Below, in pieces: positions 2,780-19,358 of a stretch of 19,742 bases of DNA. Below the pieces are notes generated by a model. That model did no database searches, was not told the origin of the DNA, and saw nothing but the letters and a program-made list of their open reading frames with translations. Positions within the stretch are counted from its first letter, which is position 1. Each line of letters begins with the position of its first letter. The DNA is from a virus (taxonomy: Duplodnaviria; Heunggongvirae; Uroviricota; Caudoviricetes). The translations under genes were made by a program, and so were the position numbers. Where the stretch lies: the IMG/VR virus record IMGVR_UViG_2534681835_000041; one strand, given 5' to 3'.

Positions 2780-3513
2780 CACTTCACCTCCTGCGGCGGT
2801 TCCGGTAGCGGCATCCAGTGAGTTGCTTGCTCAATACCATTACCCGGCTTAATCGTTGCATCTCCGCGCCGAAAGGTGCTTCCGGTATAGCGTGCGGAGC
2901 ATATTAGCGGTTCAACCAGAGAGCTATCGAAATTCACCGAAATAAGCACGTTCTGGCCCTTTTCAGGCATTCGATCACTACAGCTTATCCAACTATCCGG
3001 AGTTCCCGGAGAGTTGCCATTTACATCGAAGTTTGGCTCTGCGTCCTGAACCAAGAGGATGTAACCATTCTTGGCTGTATCAAGTTCTAACGCTTCGGTG
3101 ACGGTGCCGAAATAGCGATTACCTAAATCAGCATCACAAGTGCTTATATCAATGGAAACTTCCATGCCTTCGATTAATTCTGGCAAGTTGTAAGTTTGGC
3201 TTACAGGTTGGCTACCCTGAAGCATGGCGGCGCGGTGACACCAGATAATCCAGCCAAGCGCCATATCCCATGCCATGTATTCTCTATCGCCATTTTTTGC
3301 CCTACGGCGATCTACAGATTCCCCGAAACGCTTCTCCATAAATAATTCATAGGCTGCTCGTTCATCCGATACTGCTGCCAGTGATGCCAGTGTAATTTTT
3401 AATGCGGTAAGCATGTTGTTTTGATCTTCATCGAGTCCGAACGGTATTTCATCCCGTGCTGACTCAATGCTGGTAATCGTGTTCTGTAACCATTCTTTGG
3501 TAAGAGTATTCAT
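2779..3513 (-). CDS. Ea22-like phage protein with C-terminal DUF551-like domain
   Basis: 244-aa ORF; C-terminus '...ATHWMPLPEPP' is the characteristic DUF551 ending; N-terminus 'MNTLTKEWLQNTITSIE' is shared with the paralog at 3760-4176. ATG at 3513 with AGGTGA upstream. Confidence 0.6.
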   Translation of the reverse strand: MNTLTKEWLQNTITSIESARDEIPFGLDEDQNNMLTALKITLASLAAVSDERAAYELFMEKRFGESVDRRRAKNGDREYMAWDMALGWIIWCHRAAMLQGSQPVSQTYNLPELIEGMEVSIDISTCDADLGNRYFGTVTEALELDTAKNGYILLVQDAEPNFDVNGNSPGTPDSWISCSDRMPEKGQNVLISVNFDSSLVEPLICSARYTGSTFRRGDATIKPGNGIEQATHWMPLPEPPQEVK

Positions 3514-3515
3514 AA

Positions 3516-3707
3516 CTATTTCACCTTAATCTCAACATTTCGCAGCTTTAGCTCTACTGGCAAGTCTGACTTTCCTGTTAATGCTAATGCGAGATTTTCA
3601 GGAGTAATGAGAGCTGTTATTGTTTTCCCCATCGCCAGACGAATAATCATTCGTATCTCGCGATCGTCACATGCTCCCGGTCGAACAATTGATATTTGTC
3701 CGTTCAT
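3516..3707 (-). CDS. hypothetical small phage protein (63 aa from the ATG at 3707)
   Basis: In-frame ATG at 3707 with GGAGA 8-9 nt upstream; the track ORF begins at a TTG at 3728. No motif recognised. Confidence 0.4.
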   Translation of the reverse strand: MNGQISIVRPGACDDREIRMIIRLAMGKTITALITPENLALALTGKSDLPVELKLRNVEIKVK

Positions 3708-3759
3708 CTCACTCTCCTTTGATGCCAATGTTTACAGCCTGACAAGCCTCTTTGAGCAC

Positions 3760-4176
3760 TCAGTCAACAGCGTCTTTCCATGCTCCGGTTTCGACTGGCG
3801 GATTTTCACTCTTAACCTGTTCATAGAAGCGCACCGCTTTAATCAATCCTTCGGGTGTCAGTGGCACAGGCTGGGCCGTGAATAACGCCTGAATTTCATA
3901 GTTCGGCCTGTCGTTGCAATCCTCTTTTGTCGGTACATATTTCCAGTCACCAACCCACGGCTTCTCCTGAAAGTTCGTAACGCCTTTTCTCACGTAGCGA
4001 TATCGCCATGTCACCGGTTCGGCTTCCAGCGATACCAGCGCGACTTTAAATGCGGTAAGTACGTTTTTAACCACATCGATTTTGAATACTATTTCATCAC
4101 ATACAAACGATTTATCGTCTACTACCGTTTCAATTCCGGTAATCGTGTTTTGTAGCCATTTGGTTAATTCAGCCAT
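3760..4176 (-). CDS. hypothetical phage protein, N-terminal paralog of the Ea22-like gene
   Basis: 138-aa ORF; N-terminus 'MAELTKWLQNTITGIE' parallels 'MNTLTKEWLQNTITSIE' of 2779-3513. ATG at 4176. Confidence 0.55.
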   Translation of the reverse strand: MAELTKWLQNTITGIETVVDDKSFVCDEIVFKIDVVKNVLTAFKVALVSLEAEPVTWRYRYVRKGVTNFQEKPWVGDWKYVPTKEDCNDRPNYEIQALFTAQPVPLTPEGLIKAVRFYEQVKSENPPVETGAWKDAVD

Positions 4177-4185
4177 TTTTCATTA

Positions 4186-4201
4186 CCGCCCTTTCGGGCG
4201 G
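4186..4201 (-). promoter_or_regulatory. GAAA-tetraloop hairpin between a Shine-Dalgarno-like GGAGA and the ATG at 4176
   Basis: Minus-strand RNA reads caGGAGAccgcccGAAAgggcggtaatgaaaaATG: a 6-bp GC stem with GAAA loop lies between the only SD-like motif and the start codon. Confidence 0.35.
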
Positions 4202-4322
4202 TCTCCTGATGTTCTGAGGGTGCAGGAATCCCTCCGGTTAAGGATTAAATTTTATTTACAGAACTGAATTTAATTATTCAGATATACGTATCTGTAACCT
4301 TACGAACCTACTCACTGGATGC

Positions 4323-4796
4323 CTATTTCATAAAAATAATCCAGTGGGTTTTATCGTTTTTTCCTGTTCGTTGACCGATAACAGGTTTTCTGTCGGTCAG
4401 TACCAATATCTGGCGAACAGGTATTTGCGTTTCATTCCATTTAAAAATCAGAACGCCGGATGGACGCAACACACGAAAGGCTTCTTTAAATCCCTGCCGC
4501 AAATCATCACGCCAGGTATCTTTATTCAGCCGTCCATATTTCTTTCCCATCCAGGCGTTATCACCAACACGCTCAAGATGCGGAGGGTCGAATATAACCA
4601 TCGAAAAAGATGCGTCTGCAAATGGTAGTGCACGAAAATCAGCTATCAGATCAGGACTGATAATCAGGCGTCGTCCATCACACAATGTGTGCTCTTCCTT
4701 TCTGATATCGCTAAATATCGCCCGGTCGTCATTCTTATCGAACCAGAACATGCGACTGCCACAGCACATGTCGAGGATTGCTGCATGTCCAGTCAC
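4323..4796 (-). CDS. small SAM-dependent methyltransferase-like protein (DPPH motif)
   Basis: Motif I-like 'ILDMCCGSRM', then 'FDPPH' (DPPY-type motif IV position) and 'LRPSGVLIF'. Start set at the GTG at 4796 (AGGAGG 6 nt upstream, GTGA overlap with the upstream stop); the track ORF extends to an ATG at 4829 with no RBS. Confidence 0.5.
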   Translation of the reverse strand: MTGHAAILDMCCGSRMFWFDKNDDRAIFSDIRKEEHTLCDGRRLIISPDLIADFRALPFADASFSMVIFDPPHLERVGDNAWMGKKYGRLNKDTWRDDLRQGFKEAFRVLRPSGVLIFKWNETQIPVRQILVLTDRKPVIGQRTGKNDKTHWIIFMK

Positions 4797-5143
4797 TGGC
4801 TGCCTCCTTTGCGAAGCCGTTCCGCCCATTCTTCAAGGGATTTCTCTGCATATTCACCGGACAGGCCATCAATCGGATGCGATTCATTAGCTAACTCTTC
4901 TTTTGCTGACAGAATCATGCGTGTAACGTCGAAAACTTCAGCCAAAGGCTTATTGATAAATCCGTGATTGAAAGCAGCAGCAAGACGGCTTGCGGTATAG
5001 TTAATACCCTCGTTGCGAGCCTCAGCACGTACTTCATCGAATTTACGCACCAGATACTCAGCATTTGTTTCATTCACTTTCAGATCTCGCGGTACACATT
5101 TCCCGCGAAGAAACCCTTCCATTTCGAAAACATTCATGCGCAT
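4793..5143 (-). CDS. hypothetical phage protein (116 aa)
   Basis: ATG at 5143 overlaps the 3' end of the HD-domain gene; stop overlaps the downstream GTG start. Acidic, helical-looking sequence with no recognised motif. Confidence 0.5.
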   Translation of the reverse strand: MRMNVFEMEGFLRGKCVPRDLKVNETNAEYLVRKFDEVRAEARNEGINYTASRLAAAFNHGFINKPLAEVFDVTRMILSAKEELANESHPIDGLSGEYAEKSLEEWAERLRKGGSQ

Positions 5144-5692: not shown

Positions 5693-6019
5693 ATGACTAA
5701 AAATACTCGTTTTTCCCCCGAAGTCCGTCAGCGGGCGATTCGTATGGTTCTGGAAAGTCAGGATGAATATGACTCACAGTGGGCGGCAATTTGTTCCATT
5801 GCCCCAAAGATTGGCTGTACGCCGGAGACTCTGCGTGTCTGGGTTCGCCAGCATGAGCGGGATACCGGGGGCGGTGATGGTGGGCTCACCAGCGCTGAAC
5901 GTCAGCGTCTGAAAGAGCTGGAACGTGAAAATCGTGAACTGCGCCGCAGTAACGATATCCTTCGCCAGGCTTCCGCTTATTTTGCGAAGGCGGAGTTCGA
6001 CCGCCTCTGGAAAAAATGA
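5693..6019 (+). CDS. IS3-family transposase OrfA (HTH, leucine-zipper)
   Basis: 108 aa '[22 protein letters not shown]...[30 protein letters not shown]'; ends in an A6 tract at 6011-6016 overlapping the orfB start. Confidence 0.9.
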
Positions 6020-6906
6020 TGCCACTGCTGGATAAGCTGCGTGAGCAGTACGGGGTCGGACCGGTATGCAGCGAACTGCATATTGCCCCGTCAACGTATT
6101 ACCATTGTCAGCAACAGCGACATCATCCGGATAAACGCAGTGCCCGTGCGCAGCACGACGACTGGCTGAAGAGAGAGATACAGCGCGTATACGATGAAAA
6201 TCATCAGGTGTACGGTGTGCGTAAAGTCTGGCGTCAGTTGTTACGGGAAGGAATCAGGGTGGCCAGATGTACAGTGGCACGTCTCATGGCGGTTATGGGA
6301 CTTGCCGGTGTTCTCCGGGGTAAAAAGGTCCGTACGACCATCAGCCGGAAAGCCGTTGCCGCAGGCGACCGCGTAAACCGTCAGTTCGTGGCAGAACGAC
6401 CTGACCAGCTGTGGGTGGCTGATTTTACTTACGTCAGCACATGGCAGGGCTTCGTCTATGTGGCGTTTATCATTGATGTGTTTGCCGGATACATCGTGGG
6501 GTGGCGGGTCTCATCGTCTATGGAAACGACATTCGTGCTGGATGCGCTGGAGCAGGCGTTGTGGGCCCGTCGTCCGTCTGGCACCATCCATCACAGCGAT
6601 AAAGGCTCTCAGTATGTGTCACTGGCCTATACGGAGCGACTAAAAGAAGCCGGATTACTGGCATCAACAGGGAGTACAGGCGACTCGTATGACAACGCGA
6701 TGGCTGAGAGCATCAATGGTCTTTACAAAGCGGAGGTAATACACCGTAAGAGCTGGAAAAACCGTGCAGAAGTGGAACTGGCCACACTAACGTGGGTGGA
6801 CTGGTATAACAATCGACGATTGCTGGGAAGGCTGGGCCATACTCCTCCGGCAGAAGCAGAAAAAGCTTATTATGCTTCCATCGGAAACGATGATCTGGCA
6901 GCCTGA
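6016..6906 (+). CDS. IS3-family transposase OrfB (DDE integrase core)
   Basis: 296 aa with the rve-type core ('WVADFTYV', 'HSDKGSQY', '[15 protein letters not shown]'); ATG at 6016 overlaps the orfA stop in the -1 frame. Confidence 0.9.
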
Positions 6907-7575: not shown

Positions 7576-8735
7576 TTGCGCCCCCTTACCTCTGAAGGGT
7601 TCAGCGACAAATTTATGAGGCAGGCCAGCGCCGAAGCATCATTAATATAGTCATATAAGCTAACAGCCAGCGGAGATTCGGCTTTTGCCAACATAGGATA
7701 AAGCTGCTGCAGCCAGACCTGATGAATTGATGAAATGTAGGAATAGAGAACACTGGCGTTATGTGCAACGTCGCTCGGTACAGAGGGCTTTGAAAGCTGT
7801 TTCTCCATCTGGTTAAAGGCATTGATGTATGCCTCTTTGAACTGGGCAGCACGTTTGCCAGTGAAGCCCATTGCCAGGAACGCGAAGCCGTCGCGGGTGA
7901 TGTGGTAGCAAGGAAGTTTGCGAGTACCGCCGTTGGGCTGGTGTACCAAAATTGATGTCTCCGCAAAATTGCGGGCACAAAACTCTGGAGAACAATCCAA
8001 AATGCGGATCTTTTTCAGAACATCGTCATGACGTTTAGAGAAGAAGTCAGCAACAGCCAAAGAAGATGTAACAGCCTGACCATCAACGATGGCAATTTCA
8101 GGTTGAGAGAGGGTTGGGAGAGTAGTCATGGTGACAGCCCCGGTAGTCAGTTTTTCAGAAAACTCACCACATGGGACGCCAATCACAGAGGTGGTGAGAC
8201 GTACAGGGTTGGCGTTACCGGAGACTACCGAACCCGGCCCGACCGAAGTCGGCCCTGTACGCCCCACCATAATTTGGGCGTAGCAATGCTCATGACACGA
8301 AAAAACCGCATGAGCGCGGTTATGCTCAGTAATCAATTTCAGGACGCCAATCCCGGCACCCGCTTTATAAGGTGCCTGAACAGTGTAACGTCCCGGAATG
8401 GCAGAATCAATGTGCTGGTGGTCCTTCACACTCAACAAAATCACGCCTGAATTTCCACAAAGGACTAAAGCACTCATGCGGGTAGTCTTTGCGAAGATAG
8501 ATAACGCGCTGTGTTTCTGGCTCCCAACGAATAACATGAACATAAAGTCCTCTTCCGTCACGAAACCAGCGGTTAAGTTCCTGCACAACTCGCCCCCCAC
8601 AGTCAGGTAAAGTTCTCTGTGGTTACTTACAGCCAGGTGATTTGGTAATCTGCATTCATACCGTAACAACAGGTGTTCAGCGACGCTGACCACCAGCTGT
8701 TGCGACAAACGGTTATTTGCCGTTAAACTGTTCAT
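7572..8735 (-). CDS. Rha-family phage regulatory protein with an unusual ~200-aa N-terminal extension
   Basis: Residues ~205-300 ('PEIAIVDGQAVTSSLAVADFFSKRHDDVLKKIRIL...YHITRDGFAFLAMGFTGKRAAQFKEAYINAFNQME') match the Rha domain. The 387-codon frame is open from an ATG at 8735 that overlaps the CII-like stop (ATGA). Alternative internal start at 8129 would give a 185-aa Rha-only protein. Confidence 0.5.
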   Translation of the reverse strand: MNSLTANNRLSQQLVVSVAEHLLLRYECRLPNHLAVSNHRELYLTVGGELCRNLTAGFVTEEDFMFMLFVGSQKHSALSIFAKTTRMSALVLCGNSGVILLSVKDHQHIDSAIPGRYTVQAPYKAGAGIGVLKLITEHNRAHAVFSCHEHCYAQIMVGRTGPTSVGPGSVVSGNANPVRLTTSVIGVPCGEFSEKLTTGAVTMTTLPTLSQPEIAIVDGQAVTSSLAVADFFSKRHDDVLKKIRILDCSPEFCARNFAETSILVHQPNGGTRKLPCYHITRDGFAFLAMGFTGKRAAQFKEAYINAFNQMEKQLSKPSVPSDVAHNASVLYSYISSIHQVWLQQLYPMLAKAESPLAVSLYDYINDASALACLINLSLNPSEVRGRK

Positions 8736-9633: not shown

Positions 9634-10326
9634 ATGAACATAGGAAATCGAGTCAGACAACTTCGCCAGGCGAAGAACATGAAAATCGCCGATCTCGCTG
9701 AAGCAATAGGAGTGGATGCGGCGAATATCTCGCGCCTCGAAACAGGTAAGCAGAAACAATTCACTGAACAAGCCCTGAGTAATATTGCCAGGAGCTTAGG
9801 TGTTGATATTGCTGATCTCTTTACCTCAGACCTCAAAAGTAATACTGTATGTAAAAACAGTATTAGTGAGGATGTTGCGCAGGTGAAGGATGTATTCCGT
9901 ATTGAAATGCTGGATGTCAGTGCCAGTGCGGGAAATGGCCTTATCCAGGGCGGTGATGTCATTGATGTGATTCATGCCATTGAATACAGAACTGATAATG
10001 CTGTATCGATGTTTGGTGGACGACCAGCAAATCACATTAAAGTTATCAACGTTCGTGGGGACAGTATGTGTCCAACCATTGAGCCAGGAGATCTCATCTT
10101 CGTTGATATCAGTATCAATCAGTTTGATGGGGATGGTATATATGTATTTGGTTTTGATGATAAAATTTACGTCAAACGACTGCAAATGATACCTGATAAA
10201 CTGCTGGTAATTTCTGATAATCAGATTTACCGCGAATGGGGAATTACCAGCGAAAACGAACATCGGTTTATGGTCTTTGGAAAGGTCTTAATCAGTCAGT
10301 CACAAACCCTTAAGCGACACAATTAA
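9634..10326 (+). CDS. CI-like phage repressor (HTH plus S24 LexA-type autopeptidase domain)
   Basis: N-terminal HTH ('MKIADLAEAIGVDAANISRLETG'); C-terminal S24 motifs 'VRGDSMCPTIEPGD' (Ser nucleophile) and 'KIYVKRL' (Lys). Confidence 0.8.
   Translation: MNIGNRVRQLRQAKNMKIADLAEAIGVDAANISRLETGKQKQFTEQALSNIARSLGVDIADLFTSDLKSNTVCKNSISEDVAQVKDVFRIEMLDVSASAGNGLIQGGDVIDVIHAIEYRTDNAVSMFGGRPANHIKVINVRGDSMCPTIEPGDLIFVDISINQFDGDGIYVFGFDDKIYVKRLQMIPDKLLVISDNQIYREWGITSENEHRFMVFGKVLISQSQTLKRHN
9843..9862. promoter_or_regulatory. near-consensus LexA (SOS) box inside the cI coding sequence
   Basis: TACTGTATGTAAAAACAGTA, against consensus TACTGT-(AT)4-ACAGTA: both outer hexamers match exactly. A possible -35 TTTACC at 9820-9825 places the box over a -10 position (TACTGT). 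Confidence 0.5.
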
Positions 10327-14316: not shown

Positions 14317-15207
14317 TCAGGCTGCCAGATCATCGTTTCCGATGGAAGCATAATAAGCTTTTTCTGCTTCTGCCGGAGGAGTATGGCCCAGCCTTCCCAG
14401 CAATCGTCGATTGTTATACCAGTCCACCCACGTTAGTGTGGCCAGTTCCACTTCTGCACGGTTTTTCCAGCTCTTACGGTGTATTACCTCCGCTTTGTAA
14501 AGACCATTGATGCTCTCAGCCATCGCGTTGTCATACGAGTCGCCTGTACTCCCTGTTGATGCCAGTAATCCGGCTTCTTTTAGTCGCTCCGTATAGGCCA
14601 GTGACACATACTGAGAGCCTTTATCGCTGTGATGGATGGTGCCAGACGGACGACGGGCCCACAACGCCTGCTCCAGCGCATCCAGCACGAATGTCGTTTC
14701 CATAGACGATGAGACCCGCCACCCCACGATGTATCCGGCAAACACATCAATGATAAACGCCACATAGACGAAGCCCTGCCATGTGCTGACGTAAGTAAAA
14801 TCAGCCACCCACAGCTGGTCAGGTCGTTCTGCCACGAACTGACGGTTTACGCGGTCGCCTGCGGCAACGGCTTTCCGGCTGATGGTCGTACGGACCTTTT
14901 TACCCCGGAGAACACCGGCAAGTCCCATAACCGCCATGAGACGTGCCACTGTACATCTGGCCACCCTGATTCCTTCCCGTAACAACTGACGCCAGACTTT
15001 ACGCACACCGTACACCTGATGATTTTCATCGTATACGCGCTGTATCTCTCTCTTCAGCCAGTCGTCGTGCTGCGCACGGGCACTGCGTTTATCCGGATGA
15101 TGTCGCTGTTGCTGACAATGGTAATACGTTGACGGGGCAATATGCAGTTCGCTGCATACCGGTCCGACCCCGTACTGCTCACGCAGCTTATCCAGCAGTG
15201 GCATCAT
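14317..15207 (-). CDS. IS3-family transposase OrfB (copy 2)
   Basis: Identical 296-aa translation to 6016-6906. Confidence 0.9.
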
Positions 15208-15530
15208 TTTTTCCAGAGGCGGTCGAACTCCGCCTTCGCAAAATAAGCGGAAGCCTGGCGAAGGATATCGTTACTGCGGCGCAGTTCACGATTTTCACGT
15301 TCCAGCTCTTTCAGACGCTGACGTTCAGCGCTGGTGAGCCCACCATCACCGCCCCCGGTATCCCGCTCATGCTGGCGAACCCAGACACGCAGAGTCTCCG
15401 GCGTACAGCCAATCTTTGGGGCAATGGAACAAATTGCCGCCCACTGTGAGTCATATTCATCCTGACTTTCCAGAACCATACGAATCGCCCGCTGACGGAC
15501 TTCGGGGGAAAAACGAGTATTTTTAGTCAT
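15204..15530 (-). CDS. IS3-family transposase OrfA (copy 2)
   Basis: Identical 108-aa translation to 5693-6019. Confidence 0.9.
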
Positions 15531-18704: not shown

Positions 18705-18780
18705 GGCCCTTTAGCTCAGTGGTGAGAGCGAGCGACTCATAATCGCCAGGTCGCTGGTTCAAATCCAGCAAGGGCCACCA
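18705..18780 (+). tRNA. ileZ: tRNA-Ile2 (anticodon CAT, lysidine type) or tRNA-Met
   Basis: 76-nt cloverleaf folded by hand: acceptor ggccctt/aagggcc, D-stem gctc/gagc, anticodon loop ctCATaa, T-loop ttcaaat, encoded CCA. Close to my recollection of E. coli ileX. Symbol given by analogy with the Stx-phage ileZ-argN-argO cluster. Confidence 0.85.
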
Positions 18781-18789
18781 TATCACATA

Positions 18790-18866
18790 CCGCCATTAGC
18801 TCATCGGGATAGAGCGTCAGCCTTCGAAGCTGGCTGTGCGGGGTTCAAGTCCCCGATGGCGGTCCA
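18790..18866 (+). tRNA. argN: tRNA-Arg (anticodon TCG as read here)
   Basis: 77-nt cloverleaf: acceptor ccgccat/atggcgg, D-stem gctc/gagc, anticodon loop cTTCGaa, T-arm cgggg-ttcaagt-ccccg, encoded CCA. Symbol by analogy. Confidence 0.8.
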
Positions 18867-18879
18867 TTATCAGCATCAT

Positions 18880-18956
18880 GCGTTGTTAGCTCAGCCGGAC
18901 AGAGCAATTGCCTTCTAAGCAATCGGTCACTGGTTCGAATCCAGTACAACGCGCCA
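18880..18956 (+). tRNA. argO: tRNA-Arg (anticodon TCT, reads AGA)
   Basis: 77-nt cloverleaf: acceptor gcgttgt/acaacgc, anticodon stem attgc/gcaat with loop cTTCTaa, T-arm actgg-ttcgaat-ccagt, encoded CCA. Symbol by analogy. Confidence 0.85.
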
Positions 18957-19243
18957 CACCACACTTATCTGCCCTGACTCTCTTTTGCGGGCTTTTTATT
19001 ACAGGAAAGACACCGGACAGTGAAATGTTAAATGCCTCACAATTCAGGTAGTCGACTGTTGCCTGACATGCTGAGCGTTTGTTAAAAAAATCCTGCATGA
19101 TGAATCCCCCTGGGCGGCGGGGCATAATGACAGATGTTTGGTTGCGTATTGTATAGGCAAGTTGCGGATTCTGTCTGGTCATTGCAGAATTCACCGGGAG
19201 GCACCCGGCATCATGCTGTATACAGAGATTAGGCATATATCCA

Positions 19244-19268
19244 GGCTCCTCATCGCAGGAGCCTTTTT
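19244..19268 (+). terminator. rho-independent terminator in the tRNA-to-nanS-p gap
   Basis: Stem ggctcct / aggagcc with 6-nt loop, followed by TTTTT. Confidence 0.6.
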
Positions 19269-19273
19269 ACATG

Positions 19274-19299
19274 CAAAAAAAGCCCGAGTAGGTTCGGGC
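19274..19299 (-). terminator. minus-strand rho-independent terminator (back-to-back with the previous one)
   Basis: Hairpin gcccga-gtaggt-tcgggc (19282-19299) preceded on + by A7 (19274-19280), which is a T-run on the minus strand. Confidence 0.45.
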
Positions 19300-19358
19300 A
19301 ACAGCATGAGATACTTGCATTGTCATTTTTATCGTGTGGATTTTAACCAGGGTTTATA

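Follow-up and report, generated by a model that had tools for sequence, protein, structure and literature searches.

The locus described here raises the question of how translation can begin at a gene whose start codon is separated from its Shine-Dalgarno (SD) sequence by a stable RNA hairpin, and whether this arrangement belongs to one gene or to a larger unit. The window, meaning the whole stretch of 19,742 nucleotides of viral DNA that was analyzed (IMG/VR record IMGVR_UViG_2534681835_000041), represents the early region of an EHEC-type lambdoid prophage with a mosaic makeup. The following features are found on its minus strand.

4178 to 4281, minus strand: conserved intergenic cassette of ∼104 nt, beginning with upstream stop codons and ending 2 nt short of the ATG, defined by BLAST homology in many phages
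4270 to 4280, minus strand: TGAATAATTAA, stops in all three frames at the 5' edge of the cassette (TGA 4280-4278, TAA 4276-4274, TAA 4272-4270)
4216 to 4235, minus strand: small hairpin 1 of the MFE fold, containing the upstream SD-like GGAGGG (4235-4230), with GAGGG 4234-4230 paired to CCCUC 4220-4216 around a 9-nt loop
4207 to 4202, minus strand: SD AGGAGA (A4207 plus GGAGA 4206-4202, read from the sequence), which is AGGAGG in most copies
4186 to 4201, minus strand: hairpin with a 6-bp G+C stem and a GAAA tetraloop, from sequence, folding, and repeat search
4201 to 4196, minus strand: 5' arm of the hairpin, CCGCCC
4195 to 4192, minus strand: hairpin loop, GAAA
4191 to 4186, minus strand: 3' arm of the hairpin, GGGCGG
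4177 to 4185, minus strand: A-rich 9-nt spacer UAAUGAAAA, without anti-SD pairing
4169 to 4183, minus strand: 4-codon mini-ORF AUGAAAAAUGGCUGA, AUG at 4183, overlapping the main AUG (read from the sequence)
4176 to 4174, minus strand: AUG, start of the 138-aa ORF at 3760 to 4176
3760 to 4176, minus strand: downstream gene of 138 aa, phrog_660, function unknown (PHROG profile, annotation)

Read on the minus strand, the order of elements is CAUC-AGGAGA-CCGCCC-GAAA-GGGCGG-UAAUGAAAA-AUG GCU GAA. The initial annotation had described a stable GAAA-tetraloop hairpin between the SD and the ATG at 4176, with a 6-bp GC stem and loop taking up 16 nt of the interval, and both the anatomy (4201-4186) and the stability are confirmed directly. 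The predicted stability is -12.4 kcal/mol for the 16-mer and -14.1 kcal/mol for the 18-mer, and each stem pair has a probability of ∼1.0 in the predicted fold of a 151-nt context. An extra pair, A4202-U4185, extends the stem to 7 bp; the repeat search returns the corresponding 7-nt arms (4185-4191 and 4196-4202) as 100% complementary and 4 nt apart. In a 51-nt context the z-score is -3.79 against dinucleotide shuffles, with 1 of 200 shuffles folding equally well. A 16-mer hairpin of this kind, with up to 3 mismatches allowed, has an expected count of 0.14 in a 20-kb window and occurs at least once in 27 of 200 shuffles, so that chance makes a single example in 20 kb only slightly surprising. 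The argument that the hairpin is nonrandom is based on its conservation and placement, not on its mere occurrence.

The distance from the last base of the SD (A4202) to the A of the AUG (A4176) is 25 nt, which is reduced to 9 nt when the 16-nt hairpin is subtracted. The large gap claimed previously is thus real, while the figure of 27 nt given for it hinges on the counting convention. The SD is unpaired with a probability of 0.53 to 0.66 in the predicted ensembles of three contexts, and its predicted duplex with the anti-SD amounts to -7.4 kcal/mol for the AGGAGA of the window and -10.3 kcal/mol for the consensus AGGAGG. GGAGA had been called the only SD-like sequence ahead of the gene. This holds for the spacer, for which duplex prediction finds no anti-SD pairing, and does not hold for the upstream GGAGGG (4235-4230) or for the stem-locked 3' arm, AGGGCGGU, whose predicted anti-SD pairing of -7.1 kcal/mol is close to that of AGGAGA and becomes available only on stem opening.

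Several lines of evidence identify the AUG at 4176 as the start codon. The phrog_660 match aligns residues 1 to 138 from profile position 3 onward, and the same ATG is chosen by PGAP and in the mEp460 record. The Pfam profiles of two other protein families found next to the cassette, DUF7167 and DUF4014, start at residue 1 or 2, and with the PHROG match of the gene of the window included, the profile starts lie at residues 1 to 3; these N-terminal profile starts indicate that genes of those families truly start at the ATG adjacent to the cassette. The 4-codon reading frame AUGAAAAAUGGCUGA was considered as a regulatory upstream ORF and rejected, given that its AUG lies only 2 nt past the stem and that it is missing from most cassette variants, being confined to those with the UAAUGAAAAAUG spacer; it is probably incidental. 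The downstream protein is 99% identical to its mEp460 homologue (L002, 1575-2042) and 17 aa shorter at the C terminus (138 versus 155 aa). This early end leaves a gap of ∼50 nt between it and the following gene; the latter probably has its true start at the ATG at 3707, with AAGGAG as the SD.

Judging from sequence comparisons, the hairpin is not particular to the gene of the window but forms the 3' end of an intergenic cassette that is mobile and widespread, a point that the initial annotation had overlooked. BLAST searches against phage records return a shared block at query positions 50 to 153, corresponding to 4281 to 4178 of the window, which is common to lambdoid, Rac-like, and P1-like phages. 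In most of them homology ends 2 nt before the ATG, and the cassette closes with SD, hairpin, and TA; the mosaic breakpoints, which are observed directly, fall at the 3' edge of the hairpin or at the ATG. The cassette occurs in 1,561 of 5,426 complete E. coli genomes (∼29%, EHEC included) at 2,440 places, with up to 5 copies per genome. At its 5' edge, the three-frame stops in TGAATAATTAA permit the joining of any upstream gene to the cassette, and the TGA doubles as the stop codon of the upstream gene in several phages (for example L005, with a CDS end at 1208). An Rfam search gives no match at the gathering threshold for the hairpin or the cassette, and permissive E-values yield only chance-level matches (E > 1) at 4050 to 4450. 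A promoter scan of 3500 to 5000 shows no promoter-like site; by eye, the sole good -10 element (TAAAAT) has no -35 element. One cassette copy with 95% identity to that of E. coli lies in a record named "Actinobacillus phage vB_Apl-pPE4" (L004, PP818812.1) together with lambdoid ea22-type genes, and the host label of this record looks doubtful.

Small hairpin 1 forms the other structured part of the cassette. No ORF follows it in the window, and most changes seen in its 3' arm among variants are C>U wobbles. Where the cassette is split (L009, L008), a 70-aa gene is inserted and has the GGAGG of this hairpin as its working SD. The CCCUC of the hairpin (4220-4216) could also pair with the downstream AGGAGG, and small hairpin 1 may act as a decoy or switch. 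A compact split form is found in phage ArgO145 and in a P1-like phage; in this form the 70-aa gene lies between the first SD and the second SD with its hairpin, and the entire gap to the next gene consists of UAA-UGUC-AGGAGG-hairpin-UAGUUAA-AUG. Phage ArgO145 (L009) carries two cassette copies in direct orientation ∼1.3 kb apart, at 1721 to 2025 and 3001 to 3096, the first of which is split by the 70-aa gene. Recombination between cassettes that inserts or deletes genes would be expected to leave such an arrangement.

Three approaches were used to collect copies of the cassette. Scanning IMG/VR with an anchor that lies upstream of the SD (TAATCCTTAACCGGAGGG) returns 126 copies in 68 distinct variants, a second scan uses the bare 16-mer as the query, and a third set, located solely by sequence 5' of the SD, comprises 113 distinct contexts. 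The start-linked set consists of the 91 distinct contexts in which an ATG-initiated ORF follows the hairpin. A GGAG core is present in 90 of these 91 contexts (AGGAGG in 68, AGGAGA in 12, GGGAGG in 6, and other forms in 5) and is invariant among 34 distinct haplotypes of SD plus hairpin. The gap between hairpin and ATG in the 91 contexts is 6 nt (18 contexts), 7 nt (42), 8 nt (1), 9 nt (24), or 11 nt (6), and the distance from SD to AUG is 22 to 25 nt across the cassette family. No other SD is found in the 6- to 9-nt gaps of start-linked contexts; the 11-nt class corresponds to the antiterminator-Q gene, which has a GGAGA of its own inside the gap. Within the same gene family the spacer varies in sequence and stays constant in length, as seen with UAGUUAA, UAGUGAA, UAAUGAA, UAAGACA, and UAGCAAU, all of 7 nt. 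Conservation and spacing are in this way directly documented, and so is portability: the downstream ORFs fall into five unrelated clusters (DUF551-type, DUF7167, DUF4014, antiterminator Q, and an unclassified recombinant ORF, MRKFRKNKMADF) and the upstream ORFs into ∼7 to 10, with upstream and downstream clusters occurring in many combinations. The downstream count omits one locus (L166) with the same 16-mer within a coding sequence, which was treated as a chance occurrence. A search for more divergent copies through the proteins adds little. A protein scan of genome contigs finds 3 loci only and no useful divergent relatives, and a scan of viral contigs with the DUF7167 cargo protein finds identical copies only.

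Copies in which unrelated DNA follows the hairpin serve as a comparison for the start-linked contexts. Several of these orphans have a degraded SD, namely, AGTAGG (L137), AGGAAG (L145), and GGGATG (L008), while others show a loop changed to AAAA (L088) or a stem mismatch (L102), and one is intact (L203). The GGAG core is missing in just 1 of 91 start-linked contexts, against SD decay in several members of this small orphan sample, a direction that matches the prediction for an SD with a translational role. Ordinary SDs are the normal habit of these phages. The neighboring genes in the window have AAGGAG, GAGGA, or AGGAGGUGA at 6 to 9 nt from the ATG, including the gene with a paralogous N terminus (MNTLTKEWLQNT at 3513), and relatives of the protein of the window in other contexts are preceded by AAGGAG or GAGGA at 7 to 9 nt before the ATG. 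When 1.2 Mb of related phage DNA is searched for further, nonhomologous layouts of SD, hairpin, and ATG, none emerges besides the cassette family and one singleton, which indicates that the layout is no general habit of these phages. The singleton (L090, minus strand, ATG at 10098 of the reverse-complemented locus) reads ACTGGAGGAC, then CTGGCAAAAACGCCAG, then CAAGAAGAAA-ATG and is unrelated in sequence to the cassette. The identical 16-mer also occurs in unrelated phages, where it precedes a T-run and is terminator-like; in the cassette it always precedes UAA or UAG and an A-rich spacer.

Variation among the copies bears on whether the stem is maintained as RNA. In the 34 distinct haplotypes, 94% of the stem cells form standard pairs, and in 5 of the 7 stem pairs the variation is confined to one side and almost always produces U.G; a compensatory change appears in one cell, CCACCC/GGGTGG. 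The covariation score is no better than that of shuffles, 339 of 500 of which reach it, the 34 haplotypes being too alike for this test. The direction of the substitutions is more informative. Inside the stem, C>U on the 5' arm, which leads to U.G, is found in 29 variant rows, compared to 3 rows with G>A on the 3' arm; outside the stem the same classes number 78 and 96 (Fisher P of about 1e-6, with rows counted without phylogenetic correction). U.G is tolerated only in an RNA helix on the sense strand of the gene, so that the bias is unlike that of a DNA palindrome or an antisense RNA and, as far as the sequences can tell, points to an RNA helix on the sense strand. In the loop, G1 and A4 are kept in start-linked copies (GAAA, GGCA), apart from one start-linked copy with UAAA, and AAAA is found in copies without a start codon.

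These features suggest that the hairpin is the center of a split, structure-bridged translation initiation region of the type of T4 genes 38 and 25, carried on a portable cassette; from the sequence comparisons, this proposal has about an even chance of being correct. In the proposed mechanism, three-frame stops would end translation of whichever gene precedes the cassette, and an AU-rich untranslated stretch would follow. A strong SD (AGGAGG, or AGGAGA in the window) would then be presented flush against the 5' side of a G+C hairpin that is very stable and has a GNNA-type loop, and any gene could be attached 6 to 9 nt past the hairpin. With the hairpin folded essentially always in the mRNA, the 30S subunit would pair with the exposed SD and loop out the 16-nt hairpin, shortening the effective distance from SD to AUG from 22 to 25 nt to 6 to 9 nt and permitting initiation at the AUG (4176 in the window). 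We infer that ribosomes would use the distal SD while the hairpin stays folded. The 30S subunit would also have to tolerate a helix beginning 0 nt after the SD, with a presumed steric fit of the SD/anti-SD duplex, and the hairpin would presumably aid initiation. The initial annotation had likewise proposed that folding brings the SD to a functional distance; the change in spacing from 25 to 9 nt stands and the comparative evidence agrees with it, whereas covariation is not significant and the mechanism has the status of a prediction. Against a split site, SD and hairpin are intact in some copies that precede no gene (L203), the stem is weakened in some copies that are linked to a gene (-4.4 kcal/mol), and the SD of the window is the weaker AGGAGA, only marginally above the masked 3' arm AGGGCGGU. 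Conservation of the cassette could in part reflect recent spread by recombination.

The arrangement has a precedent in phage T4, as had been stated for gene 38. There, a stem-loop reduces the spacing between SD and AUG from 22 to 5 nt, and in gene 25 from 27 to 11 nt (PMC3014915). Mutagenesis, reporter fusions, and DMS probing have proven these split sites (Nivinskas et al. 1999; Malys & Nivinskas 2009; reviewed in PMC3014915). The cassette resembles them in a linear SD too distant from the AUG (22 and 27 nt in T4, 22 to 25 nt in the cassette) and in a stable intervening stem-loop, apparently conserved among close relatives, that cuts the spacing to 5 to 11 nt (6 to 9 nt in the cassette). The two share no sequence homology and form a mechanistic class, not a homology family. 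The T4 elements each serve a single gene of a virulent phage, whereas the cassette lies in temperate lambdoid and P1-like prophages before several unrelated genes; its hairpin begins 0 nt after the SD, and its mechanism is predicted, in contrast to the experimentally proven one of T4. Noncontiguous initiation regions are also described for E. coli thrS and rpmE (PMC7297116; PMC3936740). Here too, the ribosome accommodates an unopened stable stem-loop that separates two parts of the ribosome-binding region, but in these genes the hairpin stands between the SD and an AU-rich enhancer or standby region rather than between SD and AUG, and serves as the operator for an autoregulatory protein.

Other functions of the hairpin have to be weighed against a split initiation site. 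It could be an element of mRNA processing, stability, or insulation, with the SD spacing irrelevant and the downstream genes translated poorly or through the A-rich leader. It might then act as a barrier to 3' exonucleases for the upstream message, as a stem protecting the 5' end left by cleavage in the AU-rich UAAUGAAAA, or as a local fold shielding the SD from variable coding sequence. At other sites the same 16-mer is simply a structural or terminator stem, the 3' edge of the hairpin coincides exactly with mosaic breakpoints as if a unit ended there, some copies stand at the end of an operon with no gene after them, and the spacer is AU-rich and predicted to be single stranded. This explanation is nevertheless fairly unlikely, as it explains neither the strong SD kept flush with the hairpin by 90 of 91 start-linked contexts, and lost by several orphans, nor the hairpin-to-ATG limit of 6 to 9 nt without room for another SD. 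A negative role would assign the function of SD to the 3' arm, AGGGCGGU, 8 nt from the AUG, which the stem would mask while the upstream AGGAGG serves as a standby site; the stem would have to open, and expression would be low or conditional. The predicted anti-SD pairing of this arm (-7.1 kcal/mol), its better conservation compared to the 5' arm, its likewise 6- to 9-nt spacing to the AUG, and the weaker SD of the window are in line with such masking. Opening, however, costs 12 to 14 kcal/mol for a gain of 7 kcal/mol, the conservation of the 3' arm is fully accounted for by wobble rules (G>A breaks the pair and C>U does not), and the consensus upstream SD is far stronger (-10.3 kcal/mol), all of which makes masking unlikely.

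It is improbable that the cassette is chiefly a DNA-level recombination linker or a hitchhiking patch of homology with the layout of SD, hairpin, and ATG as a by-product, even though homology blocks start and stop at the cassette, its ∼7 to 10 upstream and 5 downstream gene clusters are variously combined, and genomes hold up to 5 copies. Split and unsplit forms and the direct repeats 1.3 kb apart in phage ArgO145 fit such a linker as well, and the analogous PeSL (promoter-early stem-loop) elements are proven recombination substrates (PMC2839356). Wobble tolerance specific to the sense strand is unexpected for a DNA palindrome or homology patch, as are a spacer of constant length and varying sequence and the decay of the SD in orphans. 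A linker function is moreover compatible with a split initiation site and would form a second layer more than an alternative. As a protein-binding RNA operator, the hairpin would be a boxB-like site for an N-type antiterminator or the site of a phage translational repressor. N peptides recognize GNRA-like folds, which suits the conserved G1 and A4 of the loop (GAAA, GGCA in start-linked copies), and the cassette is present in early operons on both the pL and the pR side. An operator is very improbable all the same, since boxB has a pentaloop and the hairpin a tetraloop, the cassette sequence shows no boxA-like CGCUCUUA upstream, the site lies kilobases from the early promoters with many genes in between, and Rfam gives no match. 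Hardly credible is an intrinsic transcription terminator, which the G+C-rich stem with its tetraloop and the terminator-like occurrence of the identical 16-mer before a T-run in unrelated phages would recommend; neither strand has a U-tract (UAAUGAAAAAUG on the sense strand, UCUCCUGAUGUU on the antisense strand), and a terminator scan gives no call at the hairpin.

Beyond the split initiation site itself, the cassette may be a self-contained mobile "plug-in" translation unit of lambdoid and P1-like prophages, a wider view put forward tentatively and with rather less than an even chance of holding. Its three-frame stops, AU-rich leader, masked decoy SD, and SD-hairpin bridge would provide context-independent translation for genes placed 6 to 9 nt past the hairpin, and it would serve as a linker for homologous recombination that shuffles small accessory genes between prophages. 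Such a unit would be the temperate-phage counterpart of the PeSL of T4-type phages, acting on translation rather than on transcription. PeSL of phages RB49 and phi1 (Arbiol et al. 2010) are mobile regulatory cassettes that recombine and shuffle ORFans (PMC2839356). PeSL and cassette alike are conserved intergenic units of ∼100 bp with upstream stop codons in AT-rich DNA, a G+C stem-loop, an SD, and a downstream start codon, and both accompany small genes of unknown function in plastic regions with mosaic boundaries and several copies per genome. A PeSL contains a strong sigma-70 promoter, of which none is found in the cassette, and its stem-loop is a terminator, whereas that of the cassette has no U-tract and sits between SD and start codon. 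The cassette closely parallels a PeSL but, with no promoter-like site found and a stem-loop that is no terminator, is not one.

A full-text literature search with the 16-mer sequence and lygF finds nothing relevant, and no description of a split SD site in lambdoid phages is found in the library searched. The mechanism itself is of a known kind; the new aspect would be a split SD site common to several unrelated genes inside a mobile cassette. If the proposal is true, this would be the first split site of SD, hairpin, and AUG outside the T-even phages and the first that is shared by several unrelated genes rather than bound to one. The modular exchange of accessory genes in lambdoid prophages, a long-debated subject, would then have a concrete linker of defined sequence, and the cassette would offer a compact natural part for translating genes regardless of their context. 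Should it not be true, the cassette is still a common intergenic repeat of prophages that is relevant to annotation pipelines and start-codon predictors.

The remainder of the window contains further elements. Two identical ALIL frameshift pseudoknots (RF01497, 121.5 bits each), at 5974 to 6090 on the plus strand and 15133 to 15249 on the minus strand, mark two inverted IS3-family insertion sequences, with orfA/orfB pairs at 5693 to 6906 (plus) and 14317 to 15530 (minus), that bracket about 8 kb of the prophage. At 8187 to 8375 on the minus strand, a C4 antisense RNA (RF01695) adjoins isrK (RF01394), an immunity module of the P1/P7 c4-icd-ant type inside the prophage. The region from 18705 to 19334 holds three tRNA genes on the plus strand, followed by the small RNA STnc100 (plus strand, 175.6 bits) and AgvB (anti-GcvB, minus strand), a set typical of the late regions of EHEC Stx-type prophages.
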